A stretch of 64,000 bases of DNA from Bacteroidales bacterium. GTDB lineage: Bacteria; Bacteroidota; Bacteroidia; Bacteroidales; UBA932. The stretch is taken from contig JAFSXX010000048.1 of the NCBI GenBank assembly GCA_017443845.1, forward strand, positions 5,823-69,822, given 5' to 3'. A program made the translations under genes and the position numbers. This document shows, piece by piece, positions 3,715 to 56,198 of the stretch. Position 1 is the first letter of the stretch. Each line of letters begins with the position of its first letter. A model generated the notes under the pieces. The model made no database searches. It was given only the letters and a program-made list of their open reading frames with translations, and was not told the origin of the DNA.

Positions 3715-3718
3715 TACC

Positions 3719-3895
3719 GTTGGCTTCGTCGGGCCAGCCGCCTGCCCTTGTCGGGCCGTCCGCCGGCTTCTTCGGCAGGAATATCGGCCCTTCTTCGGGC
3801 TCCGGTTTTGCTCCTTCGGGCCGGAAAAAGGCCCTTCAGGAGCAAAAGCCGCCCGCCCTTCGTCGGGCCGTTCACTGAGCTTGTCGGAAGGGCTT
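3719..3895. repeat. GC-rich structured intergenic element with three CTT(C)GTCGGGCC direct copies and a central long hairpin
   Basis: Direct copies lie at 3724-3735, 3747-3757 and 3858-3869. An imperfect hairpin is formed by 3804-3822 and 3830-3850. There is no credible coding frame. Confidence 0.5.
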
Positions 3896-4532: not shown

Positions 4533-4562
4533 GAACGGCGATGAAATCGCCGTTCTTTTTTA
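4533..4562 (+). terminator. Rho-independent terminator after rplS-tRNA-Arg
   Basis: Stem GAACGGCGA/TCGCCGTTC with loop TGAAA, followed by a T7 tract. Confidence 0.8.
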
Positions 4563-4617
4563 TGTACTTTCGCCGCCTGGAAAGCTAGCTTTCCGAGCGG
4601 CGAAAGTACATAAAAAA
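4556..4617. repeat. 62-bp near-perfect palindrome (T-run/A-run flanked), possible bidirectional terminator
   Basis: TTTTTTATGTACTTTCGCCG (4556-4575) is the exact reverse complement of 4598-4617. The inner GGAAAGCT/AGCTTTCC segment is also palindromic. Confidence 0.8.
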
Positions 4618-4697
4618 GCATGGCAGGCGCCTTGGCGCCTGCCGTGCCCTTCGTGCTCCCCGGACGCTATGCCGTGACGAGGCCCAGGAATGCGCAG

Positions 4698-5701: not shown

Positions 5702-5785
5702 CCATCCATAAATCCGAGCGATTTTATGGACGGGACGCTCTATTTCGTGCTCCCATCCATAAAATGCGGCGTTTTTATGGACGGG
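5702..5785. repeat. Two tandem copies of a CCATCCATAAA...TTTATGGACGG hairpin between convergent genes
   Basis: Copy 1 is 5702-5733 and copy 2 is 5752-5785. They are probably terminators for the DUF2007 gene (+) and the lipoprotein gene (-). Confidence 0.6.
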
Positions 5786-9389: not shown

Positions 9390-10550
9390 ATGAAAAGACT
9401 CTTTTTGGCAGCATTCTCTGCGGCACTCCTCCTTGTTCCGTTCGTTTCCCGCGCCCAGGCAGCTGAAGTTGACGAAGAAGAAGGCAATCACATGACTGTT
9501 ACTATAGCACCCCGTCTCGAGGGTAATTATGGCAGATGGGAAGCTGACAATCAGCCGGGCACCAACCGTTCGCTCGGCAGTTCTATGCTTTATATGATAA
9601 TGGATGGCAACATCACCGACAACCTGTCGCTCTATGGCGCCTTCCAGCTCCTCAATCCCGACCCCGCCGGCCTTTACGGCAAGGACGACGACGGAGTCAG
9701 CGTCCTTTTCAACCCCCAGTATGTCAACTTCCTCAATATGCTGATGCTTACCTACAGCATAGGAAACGTGGACATCTCCCTCGGTAAGGACGCCCTCGCA
9801 TTCGGCGGTTTCGAGCAGGATCCCGCCATCGTGGATACATATTGGGATATCTATTCCAACAACTGGAATCTCGTGCAGCCCTACCTCTGGGGCGGCCGCA
9901 TCACCTGGAACATCGGCGACCAGGCTCCCTTCTTCCAGATCGTGGATTCCCCTATGAAGGAGCGTGTCTTCGGCAAGGGCGGAATGTGCTTCTTCGGCGG
10001 ATGGAACGGCCAGTTCTATGACGGATGGGAGACAATGTGGTCCTTCGGCGGAATGCAGACCCCCGAGGACGGCACAATGAAGATTCTCTCCCTCGGCAAC
10101 AGGTGGACCTCAGGCAACCTTGTGCTGACACTCGACTACATGGCCCGTTCCTTCGATATCAAGACCCTCTTCAATGACGAGATGACCCTCACCGGCGAAA
10201 TCCGCTACACCTTCCCCAAGATCGACCTCTTCTCCAAATGCGGTTGGGAGTTCGTACGCGGCGAAGGCGGTTCGTACTTCGCTATCGGCGGCGACGACTG
10301 GTACATCCCTTACGGCGGCACCAACTCGAAATCGCTCGTGATGCCTACCATTGTCCCGGACTGCATCGGAGCCGAGTTCGGCGGCATTCCCGACAAGGGC
10401 GACTATCTCTTCGCCAGCCTCGGAGCCGAGATATATCCCCTCAAGACGCGCGACCTCCGCATCCACGTGATCGGCGCAATGAACAACTACAACAAGAGTA
10501 TGTCCCTCACCGCCGGCGTAACCTACTACTTTAACTTCAACCTCTGGTAA
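9390..10550 (+). CDS. Outer-membrane beta-barrel porin-like protein
   Basis: Signal peptide ending AQA, alternating beta-strand pattern, and the aromatic C-terminus YYFNFNLW typical of OMPs. No specific family is recognised. Confidence 0.5.
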   Translation: MKRLFLAAFSAALLLVPFVSRAQAAEVDEEEGNHMTVTIAPRLEGNYGRWEADNQPGTNRSLGSSMLYMIMDGNITDNLSLYGAFQLLNPDPAGLYGKDDDGVSVLFNPQYVNFLNMLMLTYSIGNVDISLGKDALAFGGFEQDPAIVDTYWDIYSNNWNLVQPYLWGGRITWNIGDQAPFFQIVDSPMKERVFGKGGMCFFGGWNGQFYDGWETMWSFGGMQTPEDGTMKILSLGNRWTSGNLVLTLDYMARSFDIKTLFNDEMTLTGEIRYTFPKIDLFSKCGWEFVRGEGGSYFAIGGDDWYIPYGGTNSKSLVMPTIVPDCIGAEFGGIPDKGDYLFASLGAEIYPLKTRDLRIHVIGAMNNYNKSMSLTAGVTYYFNFNLW

Positions 10551-10571
10551 TCTATCAACTAATACAATAGC

Positions 10572-10614
10572 ATACGGGCACAAAACGATGAAGTTTTGTG
10601 CCCGTATAGTTTTT
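10572..10614 (+). terminator. Rho-independent terminator after the porin gene
   Basis: Perfect 15-bp stem ATACGGGCACAAAAC/GTTTTGTGCCCGTAT with loop GATGAA, followed by AGTTTTT. Confidence 0.85.
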
Positions 10615-10621
10615 CCGTACT

Positions 10622-10765
10622 GTCAAAGCCTCCGGGACTGGAGCCTTGCCCCGCAGAGGGAGGATTCGATTCGCAGCAGACAAGTTATCCGCGCAGCGGA
10701 TGACGCAGGATGCGAGACTCTACGTCCTCCCACTGCGGGGCAAGCGGAAGCCCGGAGGCTTTGAC
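10622..10765. repeat. 144-bp GC-rich long inverted-repeat element
   Basis: GTCAAAGCCTCCGGG (10622-10636) pairs with CCCGGAGGCTTTGAC (10751-10765). Inner arms CTTGCCCCGCAG/CTGCGGGGCAAG also pair. There is a central small hairpin ATCCGC-gca-GCGGAT. Confidence 0.75.
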
Positions 10766-10773
10766 TGATGTCG

Positions 10774-15653: not shown

Positions 15654-16364
15654 ATGCTGTCGAAGAATGAGATAAAGCGCATCAAGTCCCTCTCGCAGAA
15701 GAAATTCCGCGACGAGGAGGGGCTCTTTATCGTCGAGGGTGAGAAGATGGTGGCCGAGGCGCTCGCTTCGGATTTCGAGGTTGAGGCGGTTTACAGGACA
15801 TCGGAAATAGGCGAGGAGGCGATGGGGCGCATCTCGGCGCTCTCATCGCCTTCGCCCGCCCTTGCGGTGGTGAGGATTCCCGCTTCCGGCGGAATTCCCG
15901 CCCCTGCGGAGGATGAACTGCTGCTGGCTCTCGATTCCCTGCGCGACCCGGGCAATGTCGGAACCATCATCCGCCTCGCCGACTGGTTCGGTATCAGGAC
16001 CATCCTGGCTTCGCCCGATACGGTCGATATCTATAACCCGAAAGTGGTCCAGGCTACTATGGGTGCCATATTCAGGGTCCGGTTCATCTATTGCGACCTG
16101 CCCGCAACGCTCTCGGCGATGCGCGGCCGCGGCATTCCGGTTTACGGTACTTTCCTTGAGGGAGACGATATCTACAAATCTTCCCTGACAAAAGGCGGCG
16201 TGATAGTTATGGGCTCCGAGTCCAATGGCATAGGCCAGGATGTGGCAGCCCTTGTGGACCGCAAACTCTATATCCCTCCGTTCCCTCCGGAGGGCACTGG
16301 CAGCGAATCGCTCAATGTGGCGATCGCTACGGCAATCACCTGCAGCGAATTCCGCCGCAGGTGA
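15654..16364 (+). CDS. TrmH/SpoU-family RNA 2'-O-methyltransferase
   Basis: The C-terminal SpoU-type methylase motifs are present: DPGNVGTIIRLADWFG, VIVMGSESNGI and ESLNVAIATAI. Confidence 0.85.
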   Translation: MLSKNEIKRIKSLSQKKFRDEEGLFIVEGEKMVAEALASDFEVEAVYRTSEIGEEAMGRISALSSPSPALAVVRIPASGGIPAPAEDELLLALDSLRDPGNVGTIIRLADWFGIRTILASPDTVDIYNPKVVQATMGAIFRVRFIYCDLPATLSAMRGRGIPVYGTFLEGDDIYKSSLTKGGVIVMGSESNGIGQDVAALVDRKLYIPPFPPEGTGSESLNVAIATAITCSEFRRR

Positions 16365-16384
16365 AGTAAACAACTTCATTATAA

Positions 16385-16576
16385 AGAAATTAAGCCGAAG
16401 GCTATGGGCCGGCAGGGGGCAATTGCGGAGGGCCGTAGCGAAGCCCGCCATGGCCGCGAGGCGGAGACGGGAGCGAAGCGGTGGGGTCCCGTCGGAGCCG
16501 CGAGACAGGGCGGAGCTGAGTAGGCCCGGGAGCACTTCTTGCCCCCTGCCGGCCCATAGCCTTCGGCTTAATTTCT
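16385..16576. repeat. Long-hairpin element, copy 1: perfect 37-38 bp stem clamping a 116-nt conserved GC-rich core
   Basis: Arm 16386-16422 is the exact reverse complement of 16539-16575. The core 16423-16538 recurs at 53123-53238. Confidence 0.9.
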
Positions 16577-16678
16577 GCGAAAAGTCTCTTGCATACTTGG
16601 GGAACTCTCTTGCAGACTTGGCCAAAGTTGACTAAATTTGCAAGTTATATTGACTATTTGATATTTACTCGAGATATT

Positions 16679-19396
16679 ATGCAGGAAGAACTCTCTGTGA
16701 AGTACGACCCCTCACGCGTTGAGGACAGGTGGTACGCATACTGGATTGACCATAAATTCTTTCATTCCGAGCCTGACGGCCGTGAGCCATACACGATAGT
16801 TATCCCGCCGCCCAATGTGACGGGAGTGCTCCATATGGGCCACATGATGAACAACACCCTTCAGGATGTCCTCATCCGCCGTGCCAGGATGACCGGCAAG
16901 AACGCCCTCTGGGTGCCCGGAACCGACCACGCATCCATCGCCACCGAAGCCAAGGTCGTCGGCAAACTGGCCACTATGGGCATCAAAAAACGTGACCTGA
17001 CCCGCGAGGAATTCCTCAAGTACGCCTGGGAGTGGAAAGAGGAGCACGGAGGCATAATCCTCAAGCAGCTGCGCCGTCTTGGAACCAGCTGCGACTGGGA
17101 CCGCACCGCCTTCACTATGGATGAGGTCCGCAGCGCCGCCGTTATGAAAGTCTTCGTGGACCTTTACCGCAAAGGCCTTATCTACCGCGGACTGAGGATG
17201 GTCAACTGGGATCCCAAGGCGCAGACCGTGCTCTCGACAGAGGAGGTTGTCTATCACGAGGAGAAATCCAAACTCTTCTACCTGAGATATTATGTGGCCG
17301 ATGCCGACACCAACCCCGTGAAGCCCACCGGCGAGGAGGGAGAGGTGCTGCACCGCGACGAAGAGGGACGCTACTATGCAGTGGTGGCCACCACCCGTCC
17401 CGAGACTATAATGGGCGATACCGCTATGTGTATCAACCCCAAGGACCCCAAGAACCAGTGGCTGCGCGGCCACAAGGTCACCGTTCCCCTCGTGGGCCGC
17501 GTGATCCCCGTCATCGAGGACCGCTATGTCGATATCGAATTCGGTACCGGCTGCCTCAAGGTGACCCCGGCTCACGACGTCAATGACTACGCCCTCGGAA
17601 AGGCCCACAACCTCGATACCATCGATATCTTCAACCCCGACGGAACCCTCTCGGAGGCGGCCGGACTCTATGTCGGCCTCGACCGTATGGTGGTCCGCAA
17701 GCAGATATCCAAGGACCTGGAGGCCGCCGGCCTGATGGAGAAGGTGGAGGATTACGACAACAAGGTGGGCTATTCGGAGCGCAACCCCGATACCGCCGTG
17801 GAGCCCCGCCTCTGCAAGCAGTGGTTCCTGAGCATGAAGCACTTTGCCGACATCGCGCTGCCTCCCGTGCTCGAGGGCAAGATCAAATTCCACCCTTCGA
17901 AATATGTTTCGACCTACCGCGCATGGCTCGAGAATATCCAGGACTGGTGCATCAGCCGCCAGCTCTGGTGGGGACACCGCATTCCGGCTTGGTTCCTTCC
18001 CGTGGCCGAGGGAGAGGAGGAGAAATTCGTAGTGGCGCTCTCCGAAGAGGAGGCTCTCGCCGAGGCACGCAAGATCAAGGGCTTCGAGAACATCGGGGCC
18101 GGAGACCTTGTACGCGACGAGGATGCGCTCGACACCTGGTTCTCCAGCTGGCTCTGGCCTATCAGCCTTTTCGACGGCATAGAACATCCCGACAACCCCG
18201 AGATCAAGTATTACTATCCTACCAACGACCTTGTTACAGGCCCCGATATCATATTCTTCTGGGTCGCGAGGATGATTATGGCGGGCGAGGAGTATATGAA
18301 GGACGTTCCGTTCAGGAATGTCTATTTCACCGGAATCGTCCGCGACAAGCTCGGCCGTAAGATGAGCAAGCAGCTGGGCAACTCCCCGGATCCTATCGGA
18401 CTTATCGAGAAATATGGCGCCGACGGCGTCAGGCTCGGCATTCTGCTCTGCACCTCGGCGGGCAACGATATCCTCTTCGACGAGACCCAGGTCGAGCAGG
18501 GACGCAATTTCTCCAACAAGATATGGAACGCCTTCCGCCTTGTCAAGGGGTGGAACACCGCTGATGTCGCGCAGTCGGATGAGTGCCGCGTGGCGGTAGA
18601 ATGGTTCAACGCCAAACTCTCGGCGACCATCGAATCGGTGGACCGCGACTTCTCCAACTTCCGTATCAACGACGCCGTGATGGCTGTCTATAAACTCTTC
18701 TGGGACGACTTCTGCTCGTGGTATCTCGAGCTTGTCAAGCCCGGCTTCGAGAACGGAGTTCAGCGCCCGTTGGACAAGGCTACCTATGATGCTACCATCG
18801 GCTTCTTCGATTCGCTGCTCAAGATGCTCCATCCCGTGATGCCTTTCATCACCGAGGAGCTCTGGCAGAGCATCGAGCCCAGGAAAGAGGGCGAAACGAT
18901 TATGTTGCAGCAGATGCCCAAGGCCGGGAAATACGAACAGGCGGCCATCGATTCCTTCGGAGTCGCATCCGAGGCTGTCGTTGCGATCCGCGCCATCCGC
19001 CAGGGCAAGAACATCCCTCCCAAGGAGGCTCTCAAACTCCAGGTCAAGGGTACTCTTCCGGAGTCCGCCGTACCCGTGGTCCGCAAGATGGCCAATATCT
19101 CGGAAATCACTTCCGTGGAAGGCTTCGAAGGCGGTGCAGGCCAGGCCTTTATGGTGGGCACTCTCGAATTCAACGTGCCCCTCGAGGGAATGGTGAACGT
19201 GGAGGAGGAGAGGGCAAAGATCCTTGCCGAGATCCAGCGTTACGAAGGCTTCCTCCGCGGTGTCAACGCCAAACTCTCGAATGAGAAATTCGTGGCCAAC
19301 GCTCCCGCGCAGGTGGTCGAGCTCGAGCGCAAGAAGCTCTCCGACGCTACCACCAAGATCGAGAACCTCAAAGAAAGACTTAACACACTCAAATAG
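16679..19396 (+). CDS. valS: Valine--tRNA ligase
   Basis: Class I aaRS with the HMGH (HIGH) signature, [10 protein letters not shown] (KMSKS) and a C-terminal coiled coil. The start is set at the [14 protein letters not shown] at 16679. Confidence 0.97.
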
Positions 19397-25935: not shown

Positions 25936-26063
25936 GGGATCCTTGAGTCTCCGCGCTGCCCCATTCCGGAAAGACCCTCCCACGGCTTCGCCGCGGGCCC
26001 CTCCCCGTGGGCCGGGGACGCACACTTTCCGGAACGGGGCAGCGACTGCGACTTAAGGATCCC
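25936..26063. repeat. GC-rich long inverted-repeat element in the divergent GT4/GT4 intergenic region
   Basis: Arm 25936-25973 pairs with 26025-26063. This includes GGGATCCTT.AGTC and GCTGCCCC.TTCCGGAAAG, with an unpaired middle. The 51-nt loop, read in reverse, resembles the loop of the 48.6 kb element (GGAGGGGCCC.CG..GAAG..GGGAGGG). Confidence 0.7.
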
Positions 26064-48530: not shown

Positions 48531-48566
48531 CAAAGGCTGGAGCAACCGCTCCGGCCTTTGTTTGTT
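48531..48566 (+). terminator. Terminator hairpin after the small lipoprotein gene
   Basis: CAAAGGC-t-GGAGC-aacc-GCTCC-g-GCCTTTG is followed by TTTGTT. Confidence 0.6.
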
Positions 48567-48688
48567 CCGGAGACTGGCATATATCCTGAAAACCTGTGGC
48601 CGCCCATGGCCACATGAATGGGAGGGGCCCACGAAGTGGGAGGGACGGAGCGAAGCGGAGGGTTTTCAGGATATATGCCAGTCTCCGG
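48567..48688. repeat. Long-hairpin element: perfect 28-bp stem with 66-nt GC-rich loop
   Basis: CCGGAGACTGGCATATATCCTGAAAACC (48567-48594) is the exact reverse complement of 48661-48688. The loop contains TGTGGCC/GGCCACA and GGGAGGGGCCCACGAAGTGGGAGGGACGGAGCGAAGCGGAG. Confidence 0.85.
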
Positions 48689-48690
48689 GA

Positions 48691-51600
48691 TTATTGCAGG
48701 CCGAGCATCTTGGTCAGGGACTCGATGAGCGCATCGATCTGATCCTGAGAGGAGAGGGCTTCGATGGGGAAGCCGAGGCTGACGGCATTGTAATCCGGAC
48801 CGATGTAGGCGGTGCCTGCGGGGATGTTGTTGTCGTAGCGGAAGATGGTGAACGTATTGCTGTCCGGGACGGGGACTATCGCGTCGGGCGATTCAACGTG
48901 ATAGCGTACGGAGTTGGGGATGGTGTTGAAGGAGTACCGCTCTCCCGCTTTCAGATGGAAGGGGGAGGAGACGCTGTGGAGACCGCCGCCGGCCGTGGCC
49001 TGCGTGTTAAGCCATTTGTACTTGAGGATATTGGTCACGAATGAGATGGCCGGAGCGATATGCTTCCTGATATATGCGGTGTCCGTCGGGAATCCGTAGA
49101 TGGGATCCCAGAGGTCGGAAGCGATGTAGGCGCCCGAAACAAGGAGGTTTCCCCCCGCGGAGGCATATCTCGCGAGCCGGATCTGCAGGTCGACGGGGAA
49201 GACCTCATAGGCCCACCTCGCGCCGCCGTTGCATCCCTTGACGGTGCGGGTCTGCTTTCCGCAGATCAGGTCGATAAGGCTGTAATCCGCATAGGCAGTG
49301 CTGTCTTCGGGGGCGGCATTGGCCCTGGAGGCGGTGCCGTCGCAGAATGCCTCGCGCGAGCAGGAGGAGAACGCCAGGCCGGCCTTGAGCAGCGCCTTGC
49401 CGTGGATATAGGGGAAATCGAACGTATTGCCGGCGACCGGCGTAGTCTCGTATGTGCCTTGAGACGCTCCGAATCCCGCATTGTCGTCATCCATCCACCT
49501 GACGGAGCGGCGGAATTCGAACTGGGGACCGCAGTAGGAGATATCCTCTATGTAGGGTACGCCGCTGTCCACGATATCGAGGAATCCGGCATATAGGGAG
49601 TCCGTGGTCTCGAATGAGAGGGGAGCGCTGACGCGGTCGAAATTGTTGACAATCAGGGCCTTTTTATCGCCGCCTTCGGAGGGCGCCCCGACCGACAGGA
49701 GCTCGGAATCGAAGCTGCGGCCTCCGGCATTGTAAGCGGCCACCTTGAAACTGTAGATGTGCCCCGGTTCGATGGCGATGCGGGCCGAGCTTCCCTCCAC
49801 CGGGATTCCGTTGTCGAATCCGCCGCCGTCGATACGGGAATAGACGATATATCCGTCGGGAGATGCGGTCGGTTCCTGAGGATCTTCCGTAGGCTTCCAT
49901 TTCAGGACAGCGTACAGATGTCCCTCGGAGTCGTCCAGTGCGGCGCTGAAACCGCTTACCGGCAGCGGCTGGACTATGAATCCGGTGTCGTTGAGATAGG
50001 CCAGATACTTGAGGATGCCCTTGTAGATGGCGCGTGATACCACGAACCGGAATCCGGGATCGAGGCCGTAGCGCATGTCGTTGAAATTCTGGTGGGAGAG
50101 GAGTTCCAGTATCATAGCCGGAACTTCGGGTTGGCTGCACTCCGCATAGGCTTTGTCGCGGAGCGAGCGGCGGGTCCAGTGAGGGTCGTACGAGGCCTGG
50201 ATGTCGGAGACTATCTGGGTCTGGACGACATCGGCGTACTCCCTGGCGATATCGCGTTTCTCGCCGTTGGGATAGCGGTCCTTGCCGTTTATGACACGGG
50301 TGAAGATGGCCAGCGTGCCTATGGTCGAATCCCTCGGGGCGATGCCGGCGTCGCTGTGGAATGCGAATGAGAGGTCGATGGGGATATTGTATCCCGGGCG
50401 TCCAGGATTGACATAGGAGCCTCCGGCCAGCGCATTGACCCACTTGGCGCGGCACTGGAAGTCGTCGGTATAATCTTTCTCGAATGCGGTCGGAGAGTAG
50501 ATGGAATCGGTGAAACCGGCCCACTGCAGCCAGTATCTCGAGCCTTCTGCGGCGCGGGGATAACCGGAGGTTTCGGGCAGGACCTCGAACTCGGGGTTCA
50601 GGGGGCTGCGGGCGATGTTGCCGGTGCCGCCTCCGAACTTGACCGCATCGGCGCTCACTATTGCGCCGGCGCTCGAGCCGCTGTTTGTCAGGTAAACGCC
50701 CTGCCCATTGCCGCTTCCCTCGTCGAAATCGAAGAAGCCGAGGCAAATCCAGGTGCCCCCGCCCATCTGCTGGTTGACGGAGAAGAGGGTGGAACCCCCG
50801 CTGTGGCGCACTTTGTAAAGGGCGGTGCGGGTGCTGTTCTCGACGCTTTTGTATGAGATGTAAACGGCATACCGACCCTTACGGGGGAAATCCGGAGTCC
50901 ATCTTGCGGTGCATTCGTTCGCATTGTCGTCCTTTGCGCCGCTGGTCATTCTCGCTGTTCCCATTTCGAATGGATTGTCGCCGTCGAGGTAATATCCGCC
51001 CTTCTGGCCGAATCCGTATCCCGGAGCCACCGACCAGGTGCCCTGTTCGCCGTATCCGGGCTCCCTGCCGTCGTTGTCCACTATTATCTCGGTGGTATTC
51101 CAGTCCCTCTCGCGCGGCAGGAGCACGTTCGCGCCCGCATTCTCGAGCATCGGGAGCAGGAAGGGGATGACATACGATTGGGTGTAAAGGTCCTCTACGG
51201 TCTGCATCAGGCGGCCCCGCTGCCATTCCCACCGCCGGAGCGACTGCTCATAGTAGAATCCGTGGCTCTGCCAGAGGGCGATGTGGCGTCCCTGCAGGCC
51301 GTGGGTTATGGCGTTGGGCTCGGAGAGCCGCGTTATCAGGGGGACGAGCGCAGCCCTTCCGGCAGATGTCTTTTTGATGTGGTCGCGGACGTATGGGTTG
51401 TATCTGTCAGCGGAGAAGTAGCCCGGGATAAGGTCTTCGAGCATCTTGCCGTCGGTGCGGACTGTGACGTTGCCCTTGTAGTCTTTGTATTTGTCGGGAA
51501 GGGTGGCGTCGATTATCGAATAAATGGTATGGAGATGCCGTTGCCTGAGAGGGTATTCGCTCAGAGTGTTGTTGAATATCAGGTTGAGTTTGCCGCCGGA

Positions 51601-51772: not shown

Positions 51773-52159
51773 TTACTTCCTGAAGAGTGTGACCAGGGCT
51801 ATGATGGTGGAGCCGACAGTGACTGCGGCCACGTTGTAGAAGAGGTCCCACGGGTCGGTTGTCCTGTAGGTGGTGATCTTGTCCTGAAGCAGTTCGAATG
51901 CGAAGCAGAAGATGATTCCCGTGATTATGACAAAGACCAGCGAGCGCCATCTGTTCTTGAAATAGAATGCCGCCTGCGCGAAGAACGGGTAGGGGAAGAA
52001 CATCAGGAAGTGGATCACTTTGTCGATGGGGATGCCCCACAGGCTGCGCGGCACTTTGAAGAATGCCGTCGGATGGCCGAAGCAGAGGTAAACCAGGACT
52101 CCGAGGTAGAGGATGAATACGGCTACGGAGGTAATGTGTGCGCTAGCGTTTCTTGACAT
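51773..52159 (-). CDS. VanZ-like family membrane protein
   Basis: 128 aa, 4 TM segments, with DKVIHFLMFFPYPFF and FELLQ motifs typical of VanZ-like proteins. Confidence 0.7.
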   Translation of the reverse strand: MSRNASAHITSVAVFILYLGVLVYLCFGHPTAFFKVPRSLWGIPIDKVIHFLMFFPYPFFAQAAFYFKNRWRSLVFVIITGIIFCFAFELLQDKITTYRTTDPWDLFYNVAAVTVGSTIIALVTLFRK

Positions 52160-53006
52160 AGTTGCCTCTCTTTTTCTGCAGCCTGACGAAGTCGTCTTCG
52201 GCTTTTACCTTGTCGATGATGGTGGTAACGACTTTGTAAATCTCGCTGCCTGCGGAGTAGTCGGCGCGGCAGATGAAATTGACGCGGTTCTGGCGAAGGA
52301 GTTTGTGGGCCGTGTTTTTCTGTTTGAGGTTGTCGTCCTGATAGACGGCGATGGAGTTGCCGCCGAACATCTTGACTATCTTCATGCAGGGGATGTCGGT
52401 CTCCCCGTCGCCGAGGTAGATCATATTGCTGAAGGGGATGGGTTTCTCATCCTCTTTCTGGCTTTCGTTGACCTTCTTGTTGTCGCTGATGTCCATTATG
52501 CCCTTGGCGATCTTGAAGAGGAACTGGGTCTTGCCGGTGTAATCGACAGCCACTGCGGGCCAGACGGCCTTGCCGCTGTCGTCGTACCAGAATGAGCAGG
52601 CGAATATTTTCTTGAACTCCTTGGCGATGGGGGAGCCTTCGATGAGTTCGGTCTGCCCCGAGGAGTTGATGTAATGCTCGACCTTCACCCCGTGCTCGAT
52701 GCCGTACTGGTTGATGAGCGAGAACCACTCCTTGACGCCTTTGTGCAGCTGGATGTTGCGGCCGAAGGAGACGAAGGAGTCGCGGGTGAGGGAGATGCCC
52801 ACCTTCTCGGCCTCTTCGATCATCAGTTTCATATAGGAGAGGATGGAGTTGACCTCCTGCCCCTGTGGATTGACATTGCTCAGTTCCCAGAACTCTTTCG
52901 GGGTTTTGCCGATGGCCTGGATGAAGCCGAACTCCTGCATGTTGCCGGGCGAAAGCGTCCCGTCAAAATCGTAAATCAGCGCCACTGTAGGTTTCTTCCG
53001 TACCAT
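52143..53006 (-). CDS. HAD-superfamily hydrolase
   Basis: The DxDGT motif in VALIYDFDGTLSPGN and the late YLGDGETDIPCM (GDGxxD) motif. The start is set at MVRKKPT (53006). Confidence 0.75.
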   Translation of the reverse strand: MVRKKPTVALIYDFDGTLSPGNMQEFGFIQAIGKTPKEFWELSNVNPQGQEVNSILSYMKLMIEEAEKVGISLTRDSFVSFGRNIQLHKGVKEWFSLINQYGIEHGVKVEHYINSSGQTELIEGSPIAKEFKKIFACSFWYDDSGKAVWPAVAVDYTGKTQFLFKIAKGIMDISDNKKVNESQKEDEKPIPFSNMIYLGDGETDIPCMKIVKMFGGNSIAVYQDDNLKQKNTAHKLLRQNRVNFICRADYSAGSEIYKVVTTIIDKVKAEDDFVRLQKKRGNYVKKR

Positions 53007-53077
53007 ATCAATTAGTATTTTATCTTGCAAAGATAACAAGAAACGATGATGTTACGATAATTATATCTGACATAATA

Positions 53078-53283
53078 AGGTTTATTATCTGGAGCCGGGA
53101 GGCACTTTCCCCCTGCAGGCAATTGCGGAGGGCCGTAGTGAGACCCGCCCTGACCGCGAAGCGGAGATGGGAGCGAAGCGGCGGGGGCCCATCGGAGCCG
53201 CGAGGCAGGGTGGAGCCGAATAGGCCCGGGAGCACTTCTTGCCTGCAGGGGGAAAGTGCCTTCCGGCGGAAATAATAAACCTT
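53078..53283. repeat. Long-hairpin element, copy 2: the same 116-nt core (53123-53238) clamped by different arms
   Basis: Inner arms 53095-53122 and 53239-53266 form 28 bp with 1 mismatch. Outer arms AAGGTTTATTAT (53078-53089) and ATAATAAACCTT (53272-53283) also pair. The core differs from copy 1 by 14 substitutions with no indels. Confidence 0.9.
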
Positions 53284-53284
53284 C

Positions 53285-54187
53285 CTATGACGATTTCCTG
53301 TCGTGGATCCACATCTGTATGGCGTTGACTATGTTCTGGCATATTGAGTAGCAGGCGCAATAGACAGAGGCCAGGGGGTGGAGATAGGTGTTTGCCATCC
53401 AGATGCCGACGGCTGTGTTTTTCTGGAAGAGGAGCTGGCCGCCAGCGATCTTGTCGCCGAAACGCTTTCCGATGGCGCGGCCAGTGAAAAACTGGACGAC
53501 GCAGAGGACGACTGCCGAAGCGGCGAGGATGAGGATGCTGCCGAGATTGCCCTTGCCGTGGAGGAAGATGAAATCGATGGTCTGGCCGAGGCTGATGAAC
53601 AGGACCGTGGCCCAGAGGTAGAACGCGGCCCCTTTGAATCCGGCTATCCTGTCGTTGACTTTGGGTAGCAGAATCTGCAGCAGCAGGGCTGTGAAGAAGG
53701 GGAGGGCTATCATCGTGCCGATGCGCTTGAAGATGGTCCAGAATGAGATCAGGAAGGGAATCTCCCTATGGACTCCGACGAAGGAGAAAATCACCGGGGC
53801 GGCTGCGGCGGTGGCGAGGTTGCCGATTATGGTAAAGGTCGTCACCCTCTGGCGGTCGGCGCCCAGGATGGTGGAAATCACTGCGACTGCAGCCGCAACA
53901 GGGCAGATGATGCCCACGAGGATGCCTTCGGCGATTATCTGGTTGTGGGATATCGACATCACGAGGAGATATCCTCCGATTCCCAGGACGAACTGGACCA
54001 GCAGCAGCCAGGAATCCATCCAGGACGGGCGGAGCTTGCGCAGGTCCACGGCGCAGAAGGTAAGAAGCAGGATTGTGAAAATAATGTATGGCGAAGCCAC
54101 CGCGGCGGCTCCGCAGAACCTATGAAATATGACTCCCAGCAGCAGGGCTGCCGGGAGTACATAACTTCTGTATCGGGTTAGCTGCAT
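53285..54187 (-). CDS. Polytopic transporter, BASS/SBF-like (bile acid:Na+ symporter family) candidate
   Basis: 300 aa with about 9-10 TM segments. The composition and length fit the SBF-like family. The start is set at MQLTRYRS (54187). Confidence 0.45.
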   Translation of the reverse strand: MQLTRYRSYVLPAALLLGVIFHRFCGAAAVASPYIIFTILLLTFCAVDLRKLRPSWMDSWLLLVQFVLGIGGYLLVMSISHNQIIAEGILVGIICPVAAAVAVISTILGADRQRVTTFTIIGNLATAAAAPVIFSFVGVHREIPFLISFWTIFKRIGTMIALPFFTALLLQILLPKVNDRIAGFKGAAFYLWATVLFISLGQTIDFIFLHGKGNLGSILILAASAVVLCVVQFFTGRAIGKRFGDKIAGGQLLFQKNTAVGIWMANTYLHPLASVYCACYSICQNIVNAIQMWIHDRKSS

Positions 54188-54191
54188 CTTG

Positions 54192-56198
54192 TCAGAGAGC
54201 CGGTTCCTCCGTTGCGGGCTCCGCTGCCGGTTCGGCCGCGGCATCGACAGCTGCGGGCTCTTCGGTAATGACCTCCTCGATCACCACTTCCTCTACGTGA
54301 GGCTTCTGCCAGGGCAGGCGCTTGTTGCAGATCCAGAAGGCGGCGATGGCGAGGACCAGCAGGATAAGGCACCAGCGGAGGATATGCCTCCAGAGAGGAG
54401 TCTTCTTGCGGAAAGGATCCTTGCCCTTGACCTTGGGATACTTGGCGAGATGAGTGAGGGTGGAGCCGAACTGGGTGTTGACCAGGACGCGGGAGTTGAT
54501 GGCCCATCCGTTGGCGTTGAGCACCGGAGCGAGGTTGCGCTTGCGGAGTTTGAGCCATGCCAGGAGCATCGAAGGACCGGAGATGAGCAGGATGATGGCT
54601 GCGATGAGGACGAATATTCCCCACCAGGGCATCTTGATGATACTGTCGAGGAGACCTACGACAGCGTCGAGGATGAAGCCCAATGCCATGCCGATGGCTG
54701 CGAAGATGCCGGCGAACTTGGCGATGTCGAAGGCCTGCTTCTTGGCAGCGCCCTCGTCGGGGAGTTTTGCTCCGTCAGCTTTGGCTACCAGATCCTGCGT
54801 GGCCTTGTTGTCGCGGTCCTCTGCACTCTTGTTGAGCTTGTCGGTGCACCACTTGGCGAATTTGCGATAAGGGGACCAGAAGGCCTGCGGCACGCTGATG
54901 GGGTTGTCCACGATCTTGGTGACGGTGGCGTCCCAGTCGTGTCCGTCGCGGTCGTAGAAGATGGCGTTCTGGCCTACGCTCAGGCTGCGGGTGTTGCCCT
55001 CGGTGACTATGCCTGCGATATCCATCTCCTTTCCGAGAACCTTGGAGACGCAGTGGCAGTAGAGGATGAACATTCCGCTCTTGGCGGCCATATCGCCGTG
55101 GCGTCCCATATCGGTCACACGGACGCAGAGGTCGAGGCTGCGCTCGTCGATAAAGAGCTTGCCGGACTGGAATACTGCCAGGCGGGCTTCGTCGCGGGAA
55201 TAGAAATCGGAGAATGTGACGAAATTCTTGAGGAAGCGGAAGAAGTCGCGGTAGAGATGCAGGAACTTGTCCACTCCCTTGATGGTCTCGGCCTCGGCCT
55301 TCTGGCTCTCGAGGAACTCGTCCTCCTCCTTCTTGACCTCATCCTTCCAGGCGGTATAGGTCGCCAGTTTGGCCTGGACGGCCTGCCAGTCGGCATCGGT
55401 AAGGGTGGCGGCGCCGGGATAGTCCTTGTCGAAGGCGATGGCCTTCAGGCGGGCGAAATCGGCGGCCCAGGCTGGGTTGATGACCGCCGAGAGGGAGAGG
55501 GCCTGGTCGCCGCTGACGCGGGCGAGGGGATATGTGGCAATCTCGTCGATGCAACCGGGAAGCTCCTTGTCGCTGATGGCGCCGATGCGCTCGGCGGAGA
55601 CATCGAGGGCCGCGGTGCTCTCGCTGTCGAAAGCGGCCAGCTTGCTGCGCAGGAAGTAATCGTCGATCTTGGCTTTCAGCTTGCCGGCGAGGGCGAGCGC
55701 CTCTTCGGTGTCGGCGCCGTAGGGGAGGACATCCTCACCCGCCGCCTTGGCCTCGGCTGCCGCCTCGGCCAGTATTCCGAGGGCTTTTGCTGTGTCGGCC
55801 AGGGAGATCGATTCGTGCTCTTCGCCGAGGACCTTTGCGGCATTGGAGATGCCTTCGAGAAGCGCCTTGCCTGCATCGGAGTCGGGATTGATGGCGTCGG
55901 TGGAGATGAAATCCTCTCCGGCCAGTAGCGAGTCGGGGCTCTTGAGGGCGGCGACCAGCCACTTCGACGCTTCTATGACCTCGTTGACGTGGATGTGCCC
56001 GTCGTTATTGCTGTCGATGTACGCGAGAGTGGTTTCGTCGAACTCGAAACCCGTTGTGGGACAGCTAAGCGCGGTCCATAACTTCTGGTCCAGCTCGCCG
56101 AGGTGGGCGATGTCCTCGCCGGTCTCGATGTTGACTCTCGTGACCCCTCCGATCTTGCTGAATTTCCAGTTGTACTTGTTGGATTTTGTCTTGCTCAT
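54192..56198 (-). CDS. Hypothetical 668-aa protein: N-terminal canonical EF-hand loop, large Ala/Glu/Asp-rich soluble region, three C-terminal TM helices, acidic Pro-rich tail
   Basis: DSNNDGHIHVNE (nt 55980-56015) matches the EF-hand D-x-N-x-D-G-x-I-x-x-x-E loop. TM candidates are FAGIFAAIGMALGFILDAVVGLL, WWGIFVLIAAIILLISGPSMLLAWL and ILRWCLILLVLAIAAFWI. The start is set at MSKTKSNKYNW. Confidence 0.7.
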   Translation of the reverse strand: MSKTKSNKYNWKFSKIGGVTRVNIETGEDIAHLGELDQKLWTALSCPTTGFEFDETTLAYIDSNNDGHIHVNEVIEASKWLVAALKSPDSLLAGEDFISTDAINPDSDAGKALLEGISNAAKVLGEEHESISLADTAKALGILAEAAAEAKAAGEDVLPYGADTEEALALAGKLKAKIDDYFLRSKLAAFDSESTAALDVSAERIGAISDKELPGCIDEIATYPLARVSGDQALSLSAVINPAWAADFARLKAIAFDKDYPGAATLTDADWQAVQAKLATYTAWKDEVKKEEDEFLESQKAEAETIKGVDKFLHLYRDFFRFLKNFVTFSDFYSRDEARLAVFQSGKLFIDERSLDLCVRVTDMGRHGDMAAKSGMFILYCHCVSKVLGKEMDIAGIVTEGNTRSLSVGQNAIFYDRDGHDWDATVTKIVDNPISVPQAFWSPYRKFAKWCTDKLNKSAEDRDNKATQDLVAKADGAKLPDEGAAKKQAFDIAKFAGIFAAIGMALGFILDAVVGLLDSIIKMPWWGIFVLIAAIILLISGPSMLLAWLKLRKRNLAPVLNANGWAINSRVLVNTQFGSTLTHLAKYPKVKGKDPFRKKTPLWRHILRWCLILLVLAIAAFWICNKRLPWQKPHVEEVVIEEVITEEPAAVDAAAEPAAEPATEEPAL

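Follow-up and report, generated by a model that had tools for sequence, protein, structure and literature searches.

Among the described systems closest to the repeat considered here are the ERIC (or IRU) sequences, imperfect palindromes of about 127 bp, and comparable small mobile elements between genes such as RU-1, RU-2, and RU-3. ERIC sequences are intergenic, lie near gene ends in either orientation, vary in their presence among close relatives, and have no transposase of their own. The same can be said of a unit of about 130 nt, also a non-coding imperfect palindrome, found in two copies in a 64,000-nt stretch of DNA from an uncultured Bacteroidales bacterium; this whole stretch is called the window below. 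There is, however, no sequence similarity between the two, ERIC belongs to another phylum, and ERIC is present in many copies, while the core unit was seen in only two. ERIC copies are not known to be each enclosed in a long perfect inverted repeat specific to the locus, and their inversion in place has not been described.

The REP, BIME, and REPIN sequences, which are mobilised by RAYT, are likewise GC-rich extragenic palindromes that follow genes and form hairpins, and roles in termination and mRNA stabilisation have been proposed for them. GTAG tetranucleotides are present in the core unit as well (GTAGCGAAGC and GTAGGCCC), but here they are internal and not terminal. REPs are 20–40 bp long, have a conserved GTAG or CGTC head, occur in high copy number, and combine a conserved stem with a variable loop, while the core unit measures ~130 nt and carries a conserved apex on a variable stem. 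Neither a RAYT gene nor a Y1-transposase domain is present among the scanned ORFs of the 64-kb window. The sequence-only reading of this locus had listed a small non-autonomous element or a REP/BIME-like family among its options; this comes close to the explanation favoured below, although size and the position of the tetranucleotides set the unit apart from REPs.

MITEs, such as the Correia elements of Neisseria, share with the core unit their small size, non-autonomous nature, long RNA hairpin, location between genes, and variability among strains. Correia hairpins are substrates of RNase III. The unit found here is short (132–138 nt), non-coding, and devoid of a transposase of its own, as expected of a MITE. 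On the other hand, MITEs have conserved terminal inverted repeats and a direct target-site duplication, whereas the core unit has a possible terminal repeat of which only 8–11 bp are conserved, inverted flanks, and no direct duplication.

Invertons, the phase-variable invertible promoters, are common in gut Bacteroidales. The likeness lies in a segment of 116–185 bp that is bounded by inverted repeats and found in both orientations in gut or rumen populations; the difference is that here there is no internal promoter and no nearby invertase gene, the repeats are unlike between the loci, and the breakpoints fall in different repeat layers.

Finally, template-switch (quasipalindrome) mutation at hairpins was reportedly described by Ripley in 1982. 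It is a mechanism and not a family of elements: template switching creates and perfects stems, makes or extends them by a reverse-complement copy of adjacent sequence, produces multi-base compensatory changes, and inverts loops (Monttinen and Loytynoja 2022, PMC8794818; PMC5941160). Arm correction, compensatory changes, and loop inversion are all seen at the loci described here. However, the stems and loops of the published cases span from a few to tens of nucleotides (PMC8794818; PMC5941160) against the 116–185 nt turned here, and the presence of the core at two loci is left unexplained by the mechanism.

Two copies of a palindromic repeat

Copy 1 is built around a GC-rich core of 116 nt (72% GC) at 16423–16538 on the plus strand, as delimited by its fold and by comparison of the copies. 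A left arm of 38 nt (16385–16422), located by an inverted-repeat search and the copy comparison, precedes the core, and the right arm (16539–16576) is its exact reverse complement. The sequence-only reading had put this perfect stem at 37 bp; perfect it is, and the arms are each one position longer, with 38 of 38 base pairs formed. The core recurs, as had also been noticed, at 53123–53238 on the plus strand (copy 2), 36.7 kb away and in an unrelated context. A gapless alignment of the two cores gives 88% identity, with 14 substitutions, 12 of which are transitions, and no indel. A 23-nt degenerate core pattern allowing up to 3 mismatches matched these two copies only in the window, with 0 matches expected in shuffled sequence.

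The left arm of copy 2 (53094–53122) has 29 nt, 28 of which (97%) are complementary to the right arm (53239–53267), found by the inverted-repeat search. Around these arms stands a further AT-rich inverted repeat of 18 nt per half, with the left half at 53071–53088 (core AAGGTTTATTAT) and the right half at 53272–53289 (ATAATAAACCTT). No strand is assigned to the arms or to the outer repeat.

The extent of homology between the copies was earlier taken as 120 nt, which proved too short. The shared unit runs from 16412 to 16549 in copy 1 (GCAGGGGGCAA–core–TTGCCCCCTGC) and from 53115 to 53246 in copy 2 (GCAGGCAA–core–TTGCCTGC), that is, over 132–138 nt composed of GCAGG(GGG)CAA, the 116-nt core, and TTG(CCC)CCTGC. 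The inner 11 nt of the copy 1 left arm (16412–16422, GCAGGGGGCAA) and the inner 8 nt of the copy 2 left arm (53115–53122, GCAGGCAA) are homologous, and the two copies are separated here by a 3-bp indel, GGG/CCC, which is mirrored in both arms. These conserved ends of 8–11 bp are known from two copies and may equally well represent terminal repeats or the basal helix of the palindrome.

Homology of the arms is limited to these inner 8–11 bp, and farther out the arms are locus-specific; the earlier description of the arms as unrelated is accurate for their outer parts but not for the inner ones. In register, the outer arms of copies 1 and 2 are 22–39% identical, and transitions among their differences are no commoner than expected by chance. 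Global alignment of the outer arms against shuffles was marginal, with p = 0.017, and the same test with two compact copies of the type B element (see below) gave p = 0.026, while negative controls reached 0.03. No other match to the outer arms was found in the window or in ~1.4 Mb of related loci. The left arm of copy 1 includes a mini-palindrome, GCCGAAGGC, and a small palindrome, ATAATAAACCTTATTAT, lies in or abuts an arm of copy 2. Together with its arms, the full palindrome covers 175–220 nt at each locus, is nearly perfect, and stands just past a stop codon. Neither hairpin is bordered by direct repeats that could represent a target-site duplication; the flanks are inverted repeats.

Gene context and host lineage

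Copy 1 starts 20 nt past the stop codon of a gene for an RNA methyltransferase of the SpoU/TrmH family (15654–16364, plus strand; PF00588 and PF22435) and is followed by valS (16679–19396, plus strand; Pfam annotation). Between copy 1 and valS, at 16633–16640, lies the sequence TAAATTTG, a putative Bacteroidetes-type −7 box of valS. Copy 2 is located directly past the stop codon of a gene for an SBF-like membrane protein (53285–54244, minus strand), so close that the right half of its outer repeat overlaps this stop codon. Downstream of copy 2 is a gene for a HAD-like hydrolase (52143–53006, minus strand), and its −7 box is presumably TATCTTTG, the reverse complement of 53028–53035. Thus, both copies are found at gene ends, but the orientation of the core relative to transcription is opposite at the two loci: the core of copy 2 is on the plus strand like that of copy 1, yet antisense to both neighbours.

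A scan of 40 ORFs of the window, together with the Pfam annotation around both copies, revealed no domain of a recombinase, transposase, or reverse transcriptase; the window genes covered in this way are housekeeping only. Metagenome contigs from rumen and gut, and MAGs labelled Bacteroidales, were the sole sources of proteins identical or nearly identical to those of the window, and the nearest GTDB representative genome encodes a TrmH with just 76% identity.

Further copies, known families, and coding potential

The full genome and related Bacteroidales had been named in the sequence-only reading as the places to look for further copies. Of this genome, the searches covered the 64-kb window. 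A blastn search combined with a covariance model (R1) over 1.42 Mb, comprising 80 GTDB relatives and related contigs, returned the two window copies only, and the wider collections added none. A two-anchor exact pattern of the core had 0 matches in the GTDB representative genomes, four core patterns had 0 matches in IMG/VR, as did a type B pattern, and blastn of the core against plasmids and phages gave nothing. The 20-mer at the right end of the core matched JGI metagenomes 4 times, in all cases by chance, inside GC-rich coding sequence.

The view that the core belongs to no described RNA family agrees with the Rfam scans. At the gathering thresholds of Rfam 15, only 2 tRNAs were found in the whole window, and a permissive scan of 16300–16700 gave a best score of 20 bits against a 40-bit cutoff, with all families implausible. 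Similarly, a scan of 16200–16800 found no terminator-like site, in line with the earlier statement that the hairpin is not a normal terminator. The unit resembles neither a normal terminator nor a known RNA and looks like a kind of small palindromic repeat that has not been described.

The only ORF called in the shared unit, P0121 (39 aa), is present at the copy 1 locus only. Four of the six core reading frames are open because the core is GC-rich, and the fully open frame had 0 matches among 1.84 billion representative proteins. The number of amino-acid changes between the cores is 6 to 12 depending on the frame, so that the figure of about 11 given earlier is the value for one frame; the case made there against a conserved peptide is strengthened by the confinement of P0121 to the copy 1 locus and by the occurrence of the element in both orientations. 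A coding peptide (P0121 or P0122) was considered and rejected, since it exists at locus 1 only, the open frames result from GC content, and the element inverts.

Fold of the core and paired changes

The 192-nt region of copy 1 folds with −138.8 kcal/mol (z = −12.5 against dinucleotide shuffles) and its complementary strand with −128.4 kcal/mol; the corresponding values for copy 2 are −117.3 and −105.1 kcal/mol. RNAalifold, applied to four variants, folds the core into one long imperfect hairpin with 5 helices and 40 pairs, closed by GGCAA/TTGCC and bearing the apex GCGAAGCGGTGGGG. The motif GCGAAGC is found in it twice, along with two GCCGCGAG...GGCGGAG half-repeats. Across 6 variants, the pairing of the core is kept in 98% of cells, compared with 31–42% after sliding of the partners.

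Six of the 14 substitutions between the copies make up three double changes in which a Watson–Crick pair is replaced by a different one, namely C-G to T-A at 22/103, A-T to G-C at 25/100, and C-G to T-A at 51/74. Among the other differences at paired sites, one makes a pair, one gives G·T, and one breaks a pair. When the same number and type of substitutions were placed at random, at least three compensatory pairs arose in 0.18% of trials (P = 0.0018). This excess indicates that complementarity has been kept, either by selection or by copying from arm to arm. Covariation was a point that the sequence-only reading had left to be checked, with the remark that two lone copies devoid of it and of transcription would speak against its proposal; two loci are indeed all that was found in the collections searched, but covariation between them is present in the form of these three pairs.

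Mini-hairpins of the type C-GAA-G are abundant (GCGAAGC, GCCGAAGGC, and CCCACGAAGTGGG). The oligonucleotide d(GCGAAGC) is an exceptionally stable DNA hairpin, and such an abundance might fit an action on single-stranded DNA.

Inversions and a deletion among strains

At the trmH–valS locus, a close relative (L008, TrmH 98% identical) has the same arms as the window, but the 116-nt core between them is exactly reverse-complemented. The arms of L008 share with those of another strain, L013, mismatches at positions 7 and 29, both of which are perfect pairs in the window strain. Since L008 has retained these common mismatches, the breakpoints of the inversion must lie within ~9 bp of the core. L013 itself (TrmH 92%) has both arms, the left one short of 5 nt, and lacks 108 nt of its core; the junction of the deletion is between two GGG repeats, and the last 8 nt of the core, AGCACTTC, remain. 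L013 was considered as an empty site and rejected: copy 2 has the same 8 nt at the end of its core, so that L013 is the product of a deletion. In a more distant lineage (L106, TrmH 83%), an ordinary hairpin of 14 bp, followed by a T-rich tail, is found between trmH and valS. It is unrelated in sequence to the arms of copy 1, and the intergenic sequence cannot be aligned.

At the second locus, between the SBF-like and HAD-like genes, contigs encoding an identical HAD protein form two groups. Three of them (L018, L019, and L021) match the window, whereas in three others, from three samples (L020, L022, and L023), reverse complementation extends over the whole hairpin, including the core, the arms, and two asymmetric spacers, TTCC and CTGGA, with breakpoints inside a 12-bp outer repeat, AAGGTTTATTAT/ATAATAAACCTT. 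Once re-inverted, the element differs at 6 of ~185 positions. The flanks of the two groups diverge by 1.4–3.7%, and hence the inverted and uninverted forms represent distinct strains; inversions were seen between strains and never inside one sample.

It is unlikely that these inversions are assembly artefacts, as the three independent inverted assemblies of locus 2 share strain-specific SNPs, and k-mer lengths of 87–141 exceed the arm length. Several contigs end within the element, including assemblies made with k = 87 and k = 141 (L007 and L022). Breaks in Logan contigs are to be expected because the 38-nt arm is longer than the k-mer of the assembler, presumably 31 nt, while breaks in the k = 87 and k = 141 contigs may point to heterogeneity.

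In six further contigs (L116, L108–L110, L114, and L115), with HAD proteins 95–98% identical to that of the window, the copy 2 site is occupied by a different GC-rich hairpin of 88 nt, termed type C. These type C hairpins are unrelated in sequence to the copy 2 arms, and the intergenic sequence is unalignable there too; at the DNA level, L116 and the window are ~89% identical. Among the relatives compared, no unambiguous empty site was found for copy 1 or copy 2, and no pre-existing arms were seen at either core-type locus. A pairwise indel screen of 25 loci yielded nothing beyond the two pairs already known.

Sister hairpin families in the same genome

GC-rich, strongly folding islands are present in 8 of the 17 intergenic regions of at least 60 nt in the window. 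The core unit belongs to this wider set of small GC-rich hairpins, which are present in about one in two of the longer intergenic regions and are not the same from one close strain to another at a given site. The plan of the core unit, in which a structured centre and the short helix closing it are both conserved, recurs in two further families at the least, and locus-specific extension arms are also found on type B and on one unclassified hairpin.

Type B members were recognised in the window (48588–48667) and in the contigs L029, L060, and L009/L010/L107, and compact variants occur in the window (25974–26024) and in L008. They share the invariant single-stranded motifs GGGAGGGG, TGGGAGGGA, and GCGAAGC, and their helices covary, with three double changes in P1 and two, noted by eye, in P0. 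Four of five members lie in the sense orientation, downstream of a gene. The conservation of type B extends to lineages in which TrmH shares only 59–82% identity with that of the window. Type B has no match in Rfam and can be regarded as a candidate for a new structured motif, of RNA or DNA, that has been conserved in several uncultured Bacteroidales lineages. There is a resemblance between the 5′ portion of the core, GGAGGGCCGTAGCGAAGC, and the 3′ module of type B, GGAGGGATGAAGCGAAGC. A type C element is also present in the window (3789–3876); it is 84% identical to the element of L116 and has covarying stems.

Small GC-rich hairpin elements of this genome turn over quickly. The site between a gene for a 386-aa protein and the PFK gene holds three different elements in three lineages, and a compact type B core, identical at 49 of 51 nt in our own comparison, is shared by the window and L008 but occupies another locus, between other arms, in each. 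The sole clean pair of filled and empty sites also belongs to type B (48559–48671 in the window and 9704–9709 in L116). The empty site has a single copy of the arm (16 of 18 nt identical) and no core, and the filled one consists of the arm, CCTGAAAACC–core–GGTTTTCAGG, and the inverted arm. This pair would fit an insertion during which snap-back synthesis duplicated the flank in inverted form; a deletion of the core and one arm between short AAAC repeats would fit it equally well.

Origin of the element and alternative explanations

The explanation that best covers these observations, and that we hold with about even confidence, is that the core unit is a lineage-restricted, non-autonomous, dispersed palindromic repeat of the ERIC/MITE-like kind, probably mobile, in one uncultured rumen Bacteroidales lineage, the arms, paired changes, and inversions of which would come from template switching or recombination. 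Its dispersed and mobile status is suggested by the two copies and by analogy with the sister families. The long inverted repeat would drive its own evolution through template switching from arm to arm during replication (quasipalindrome correction or snap-back copying), through recombination between the arms, or both. Such a process would make the arms perfect; change both of them together, giving compensatory substitutions and the mirrored 3-bp indel; turn the core or the whole hairpin around in place via any available repeat layer; and delete the centre across the base of the hairpin. Outcomes of these four kinds have been documented, either for template switching at quasipalindromes or for recombination between inverted repeats (PMC8794818; PMC5941160). 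The hallmarks of template switching, i.e., paired changes, the mirrored indel, two arm mismatches that became perfect pairs, and inversions of the core or the whole hairpin, are present, and they are compatible with this mechanism without being unique to it. As RNA, the very stable stem would probably serve, incidentally and in either orientation, as a transcription barrier, a 3′-end protector, or an RNase III substrate between genes.

A bolder version, tentative and rather unlikely as a whole, would be a "snap-back" class of palindromes previously undescribed in Bacteroidales. In this class, a compact and very stable hairpin core, rich in C-GAA-G mini-hairpins, would spread by replication template switching without a transposase, prime an inverted copy of its flank (an inverted target duplication), and add a layer to the stem with each move; afterwards, it would flip, become perfected, and decay by central deletion.

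If the unit is indeed a dispersed palindromic repeat shaped by its own arms, Bacteroidales, a dominant gut and rumen order in which small repeats are little catalogued, would join the groups with palindromic intergenic repeats. The architecture would be unusual, with a conserved apex on a unique stem, and standard MITE and REP finders would miss elements of this kind because they seek conserved ends. The inversions and deletions among strains would provide a natural example of template switching reshaping hairpins of 100–200 nt in bacterial chromosomes. From a practical point of view, pipelines for inverton detection will, in that case, flag such palindromes as phase-variable switches, and metagenome assemblies break at gene ends because of such elements, which may also set operon boundaries.

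Among the alternatives, a functional structured RNA survives best, although it too is unlikely. The core would be a cis-acting 3′-UTR or intergenic element, or a small RNA, kept under selection, and its closing helix would drift by compensatory change until it became locus-specific. The compensatory transitions between the copies are exactly what selection on an RNA helix would also give, and the three compensatory pairs, the absence of indels, and the share of transitions (12 of 14) are consistent with it. The plus strand folds 8–10 kcal/mol better than its complement, type B is conserved across lineages and combines single-stranded motifs that do not vary with helices that covary, as is typical of real RNAs, and copy 1, like four of the five type B members, is sense-oriented after a gene. 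It is hard to reconcile a functional RNA, however, with the occurrence of both orientations and with a dispensable core. Copy 2 is antisense to both neighbours and both loci are found in both orientations, which means that no single strand is consistently transcribed; the core is deleted in L013, and other hairpins take its place in relatives. Moreover, the core is not flanked by a promoter-like box and has no match in Rfam, and the outer arms show no residual homology in register (22–39% identity), the alignment test being marginal (p of about 0.02, with controls to 0.03).

Less probable still is that a mobile element inserts specifically into long palindromes already in place, at their apex; the arms would then be the target, and the enzyme, one that recognises structure or single-stranded DNA (IS200/IS605-, IS110-, or RAYT-like), would be encoded elsewhere in the genome. 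Both copies do occupy the exact centre of symmetry of a palindrome that directly follows a stop codon, long palindromes devoid of a loop exist in the genome (e.g., 4549–4624), relatives carry hairpins at the same sites, and the arms contain or abut small older palindromes (GCCGAAGGC for copy 1, ATAATAAACCTTATTAT for copy 2). Nevertheless, the hairpins of relatives at the orthologous sites are unrelated to the arms, and no arm pre-existing the element was seen. The inner 8–11 bp of the arms travel with the core, the empty type B site in L116 has one arm and no palindrome, and no Y1 or other transposase gene is present in the 64 kb.

A programmed inverton, in which a site-specific recombinase would flip the segment and thereby vary read-through or termination between the neighbours, is disfavoured and seems very improbable. 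In its favour are the flanking inverted repeats, the presence of both orientations in natural populations at both loci, the contig breaks inside the element, including those at k = 87 and k = 141 (L007 and L022), which could reflect mixed orientations, and the frequency of this class in gut Bacteroidales. However, the inverted repeats differ between the two loci, and different layers were used (at locus 1, one no more than 9 bp from the core; at locus 2, the outer repeat of 12 bp), which argues against one recognition site. There is no recombinase in the window and no promoter-like content in the segment. The long stem forms either way (−138.8 vs. −128.4 kcal/mol), so the output should barely change upon inversion. 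The two orientations belong to different strains, 1.4–3.7% diverged, and were not seen in one sample, and the breaks in Logan contigs are what one would expect from an arm of 38 nt, given a k-mer length of presumably 31 nt.

The weakest alternative, an ordinary though oversized gene-end terminator whose core likeness arose by gene conversion or an old duplication, with no mobility or special mechanism, would agree with the position of both loci directly past a stop codon and ahead of the next promoter and with the plain hairpins found there in relatives, but it is made most improbable by 88% identity over 132–138 nt at unrelated loci, which is not convergence, and by stems of 29–38 bp around a 116-nt interior with no T-tract, in which the terminator scan found no site. 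Besides, a normal small bidirectional terminator is located just past the type B element, which shows that such elements are additions to terminators and not terminators themselves.

Type B hairpin elements

Type B, a second family of hairpin elements with a plan similar to that of the reported 116-nt-core element, is a structured motif of roughly 80–87 nt. Its closing helix (GAAAACC/GGTTTTC) is followed by a 7-bp hairpin with an RCCCNY loop and then by GGGAGGGG, after which come a variable hairpin (CCCA..TGGG), AGGGA and GCGAAGC. The extension arms are different for every copy, and the element is usually placed directly 3′ of a gene or of its terminator in the sense orientation. The window member lies on the plus strand at 48552–48703 (core 48588–48667); among sequences from related lineages, members are found in L029 (2472–2558), L060 (666–749), L009/L010 (5003–5082) and L107 (1–49). 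Covariation in the type B helices extends over lineages with just 59–82% TrmH identity to the window, and Rfam contains no type B family. Type B is a candidate for a new RNA or single-stranded DNA motif, and its four G-tracts could also form a G-quadruplex.

The type B element is polymorphic between sister species of ~89% nucleotide identity, being present at window 48559–48671 and absent from the corresponding L116 site (9704–9709), where the empty allele retains exactly one arm copy. Either the flank was duplicated in inverted form upon insertion, or the core was deleted together with one arm.

Type B also has a compact form, TGTGCGTCCCCGGC(C/T)CACGGGGAGGGGCCCGCGGCGAAGCCGTGGGAGGG, which occurs in the window at 25954–26044 in the minus-strand orientation and in L008, another strain of the same species, at about 860–1000. 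The two copies are ~96% identical and occupy different loci. Their arms are not the same and may be distantly related, as suggested by the in-register CGCAGTCG and by differences that are mostly transitions.

Type C elements and a hairpin hotspot

Type C is a GC-rich hairpin element of 88 nt, whose outer and inner stems covary. In the window, it is located downstream of dnaJ on the minus strand (3789–3876), with partial tandem copies at 3715–3788; it is also carried by L116 (5234–5321), L108–L110, L114 and L115. In sister lineages, type C is found at the intergenic site that in the window holds copy 2 of the 116-nt-core element.

Between a 386-aa gene with its terminator and the stop codon of PFK lies a convergent spacer in which each of three related lineages has a different hairpin element with long arms (window 10551–10773; L008 about 790–1020; L009 4926–5123). 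This spacer looks like a hotspot for such elements.

Other intergenic observations

Further cases of hairpin-rich intergenic DNA in the window genome are a loopless 38-bp palindrome, 89% complementary, immediately after a tRNA gene (4549–4624), and, at 5702–5784, a CCATCCATAAA..TTTTATGGACGG hairpin that is repeated twice in tandem within a convergent spacer missing from the L009 lineage.

Upstream of valS and directly 3′ of copy 1, a 21-nt unit is tandemly duplicated in the window (AAGTCTCTTGCATACTTGG / AACTCTCTTGCAGACTTGG, 16582–16621) and present once in L005, L008 and L013. In the lineage with TrmH about 80–82% identical (L009/L010/L011/L012/L107), trmH and valS are separated by an inserted GH92 glycoside hydrolase gene; thus, this spacer is structurally plastic at a larger scale as well.
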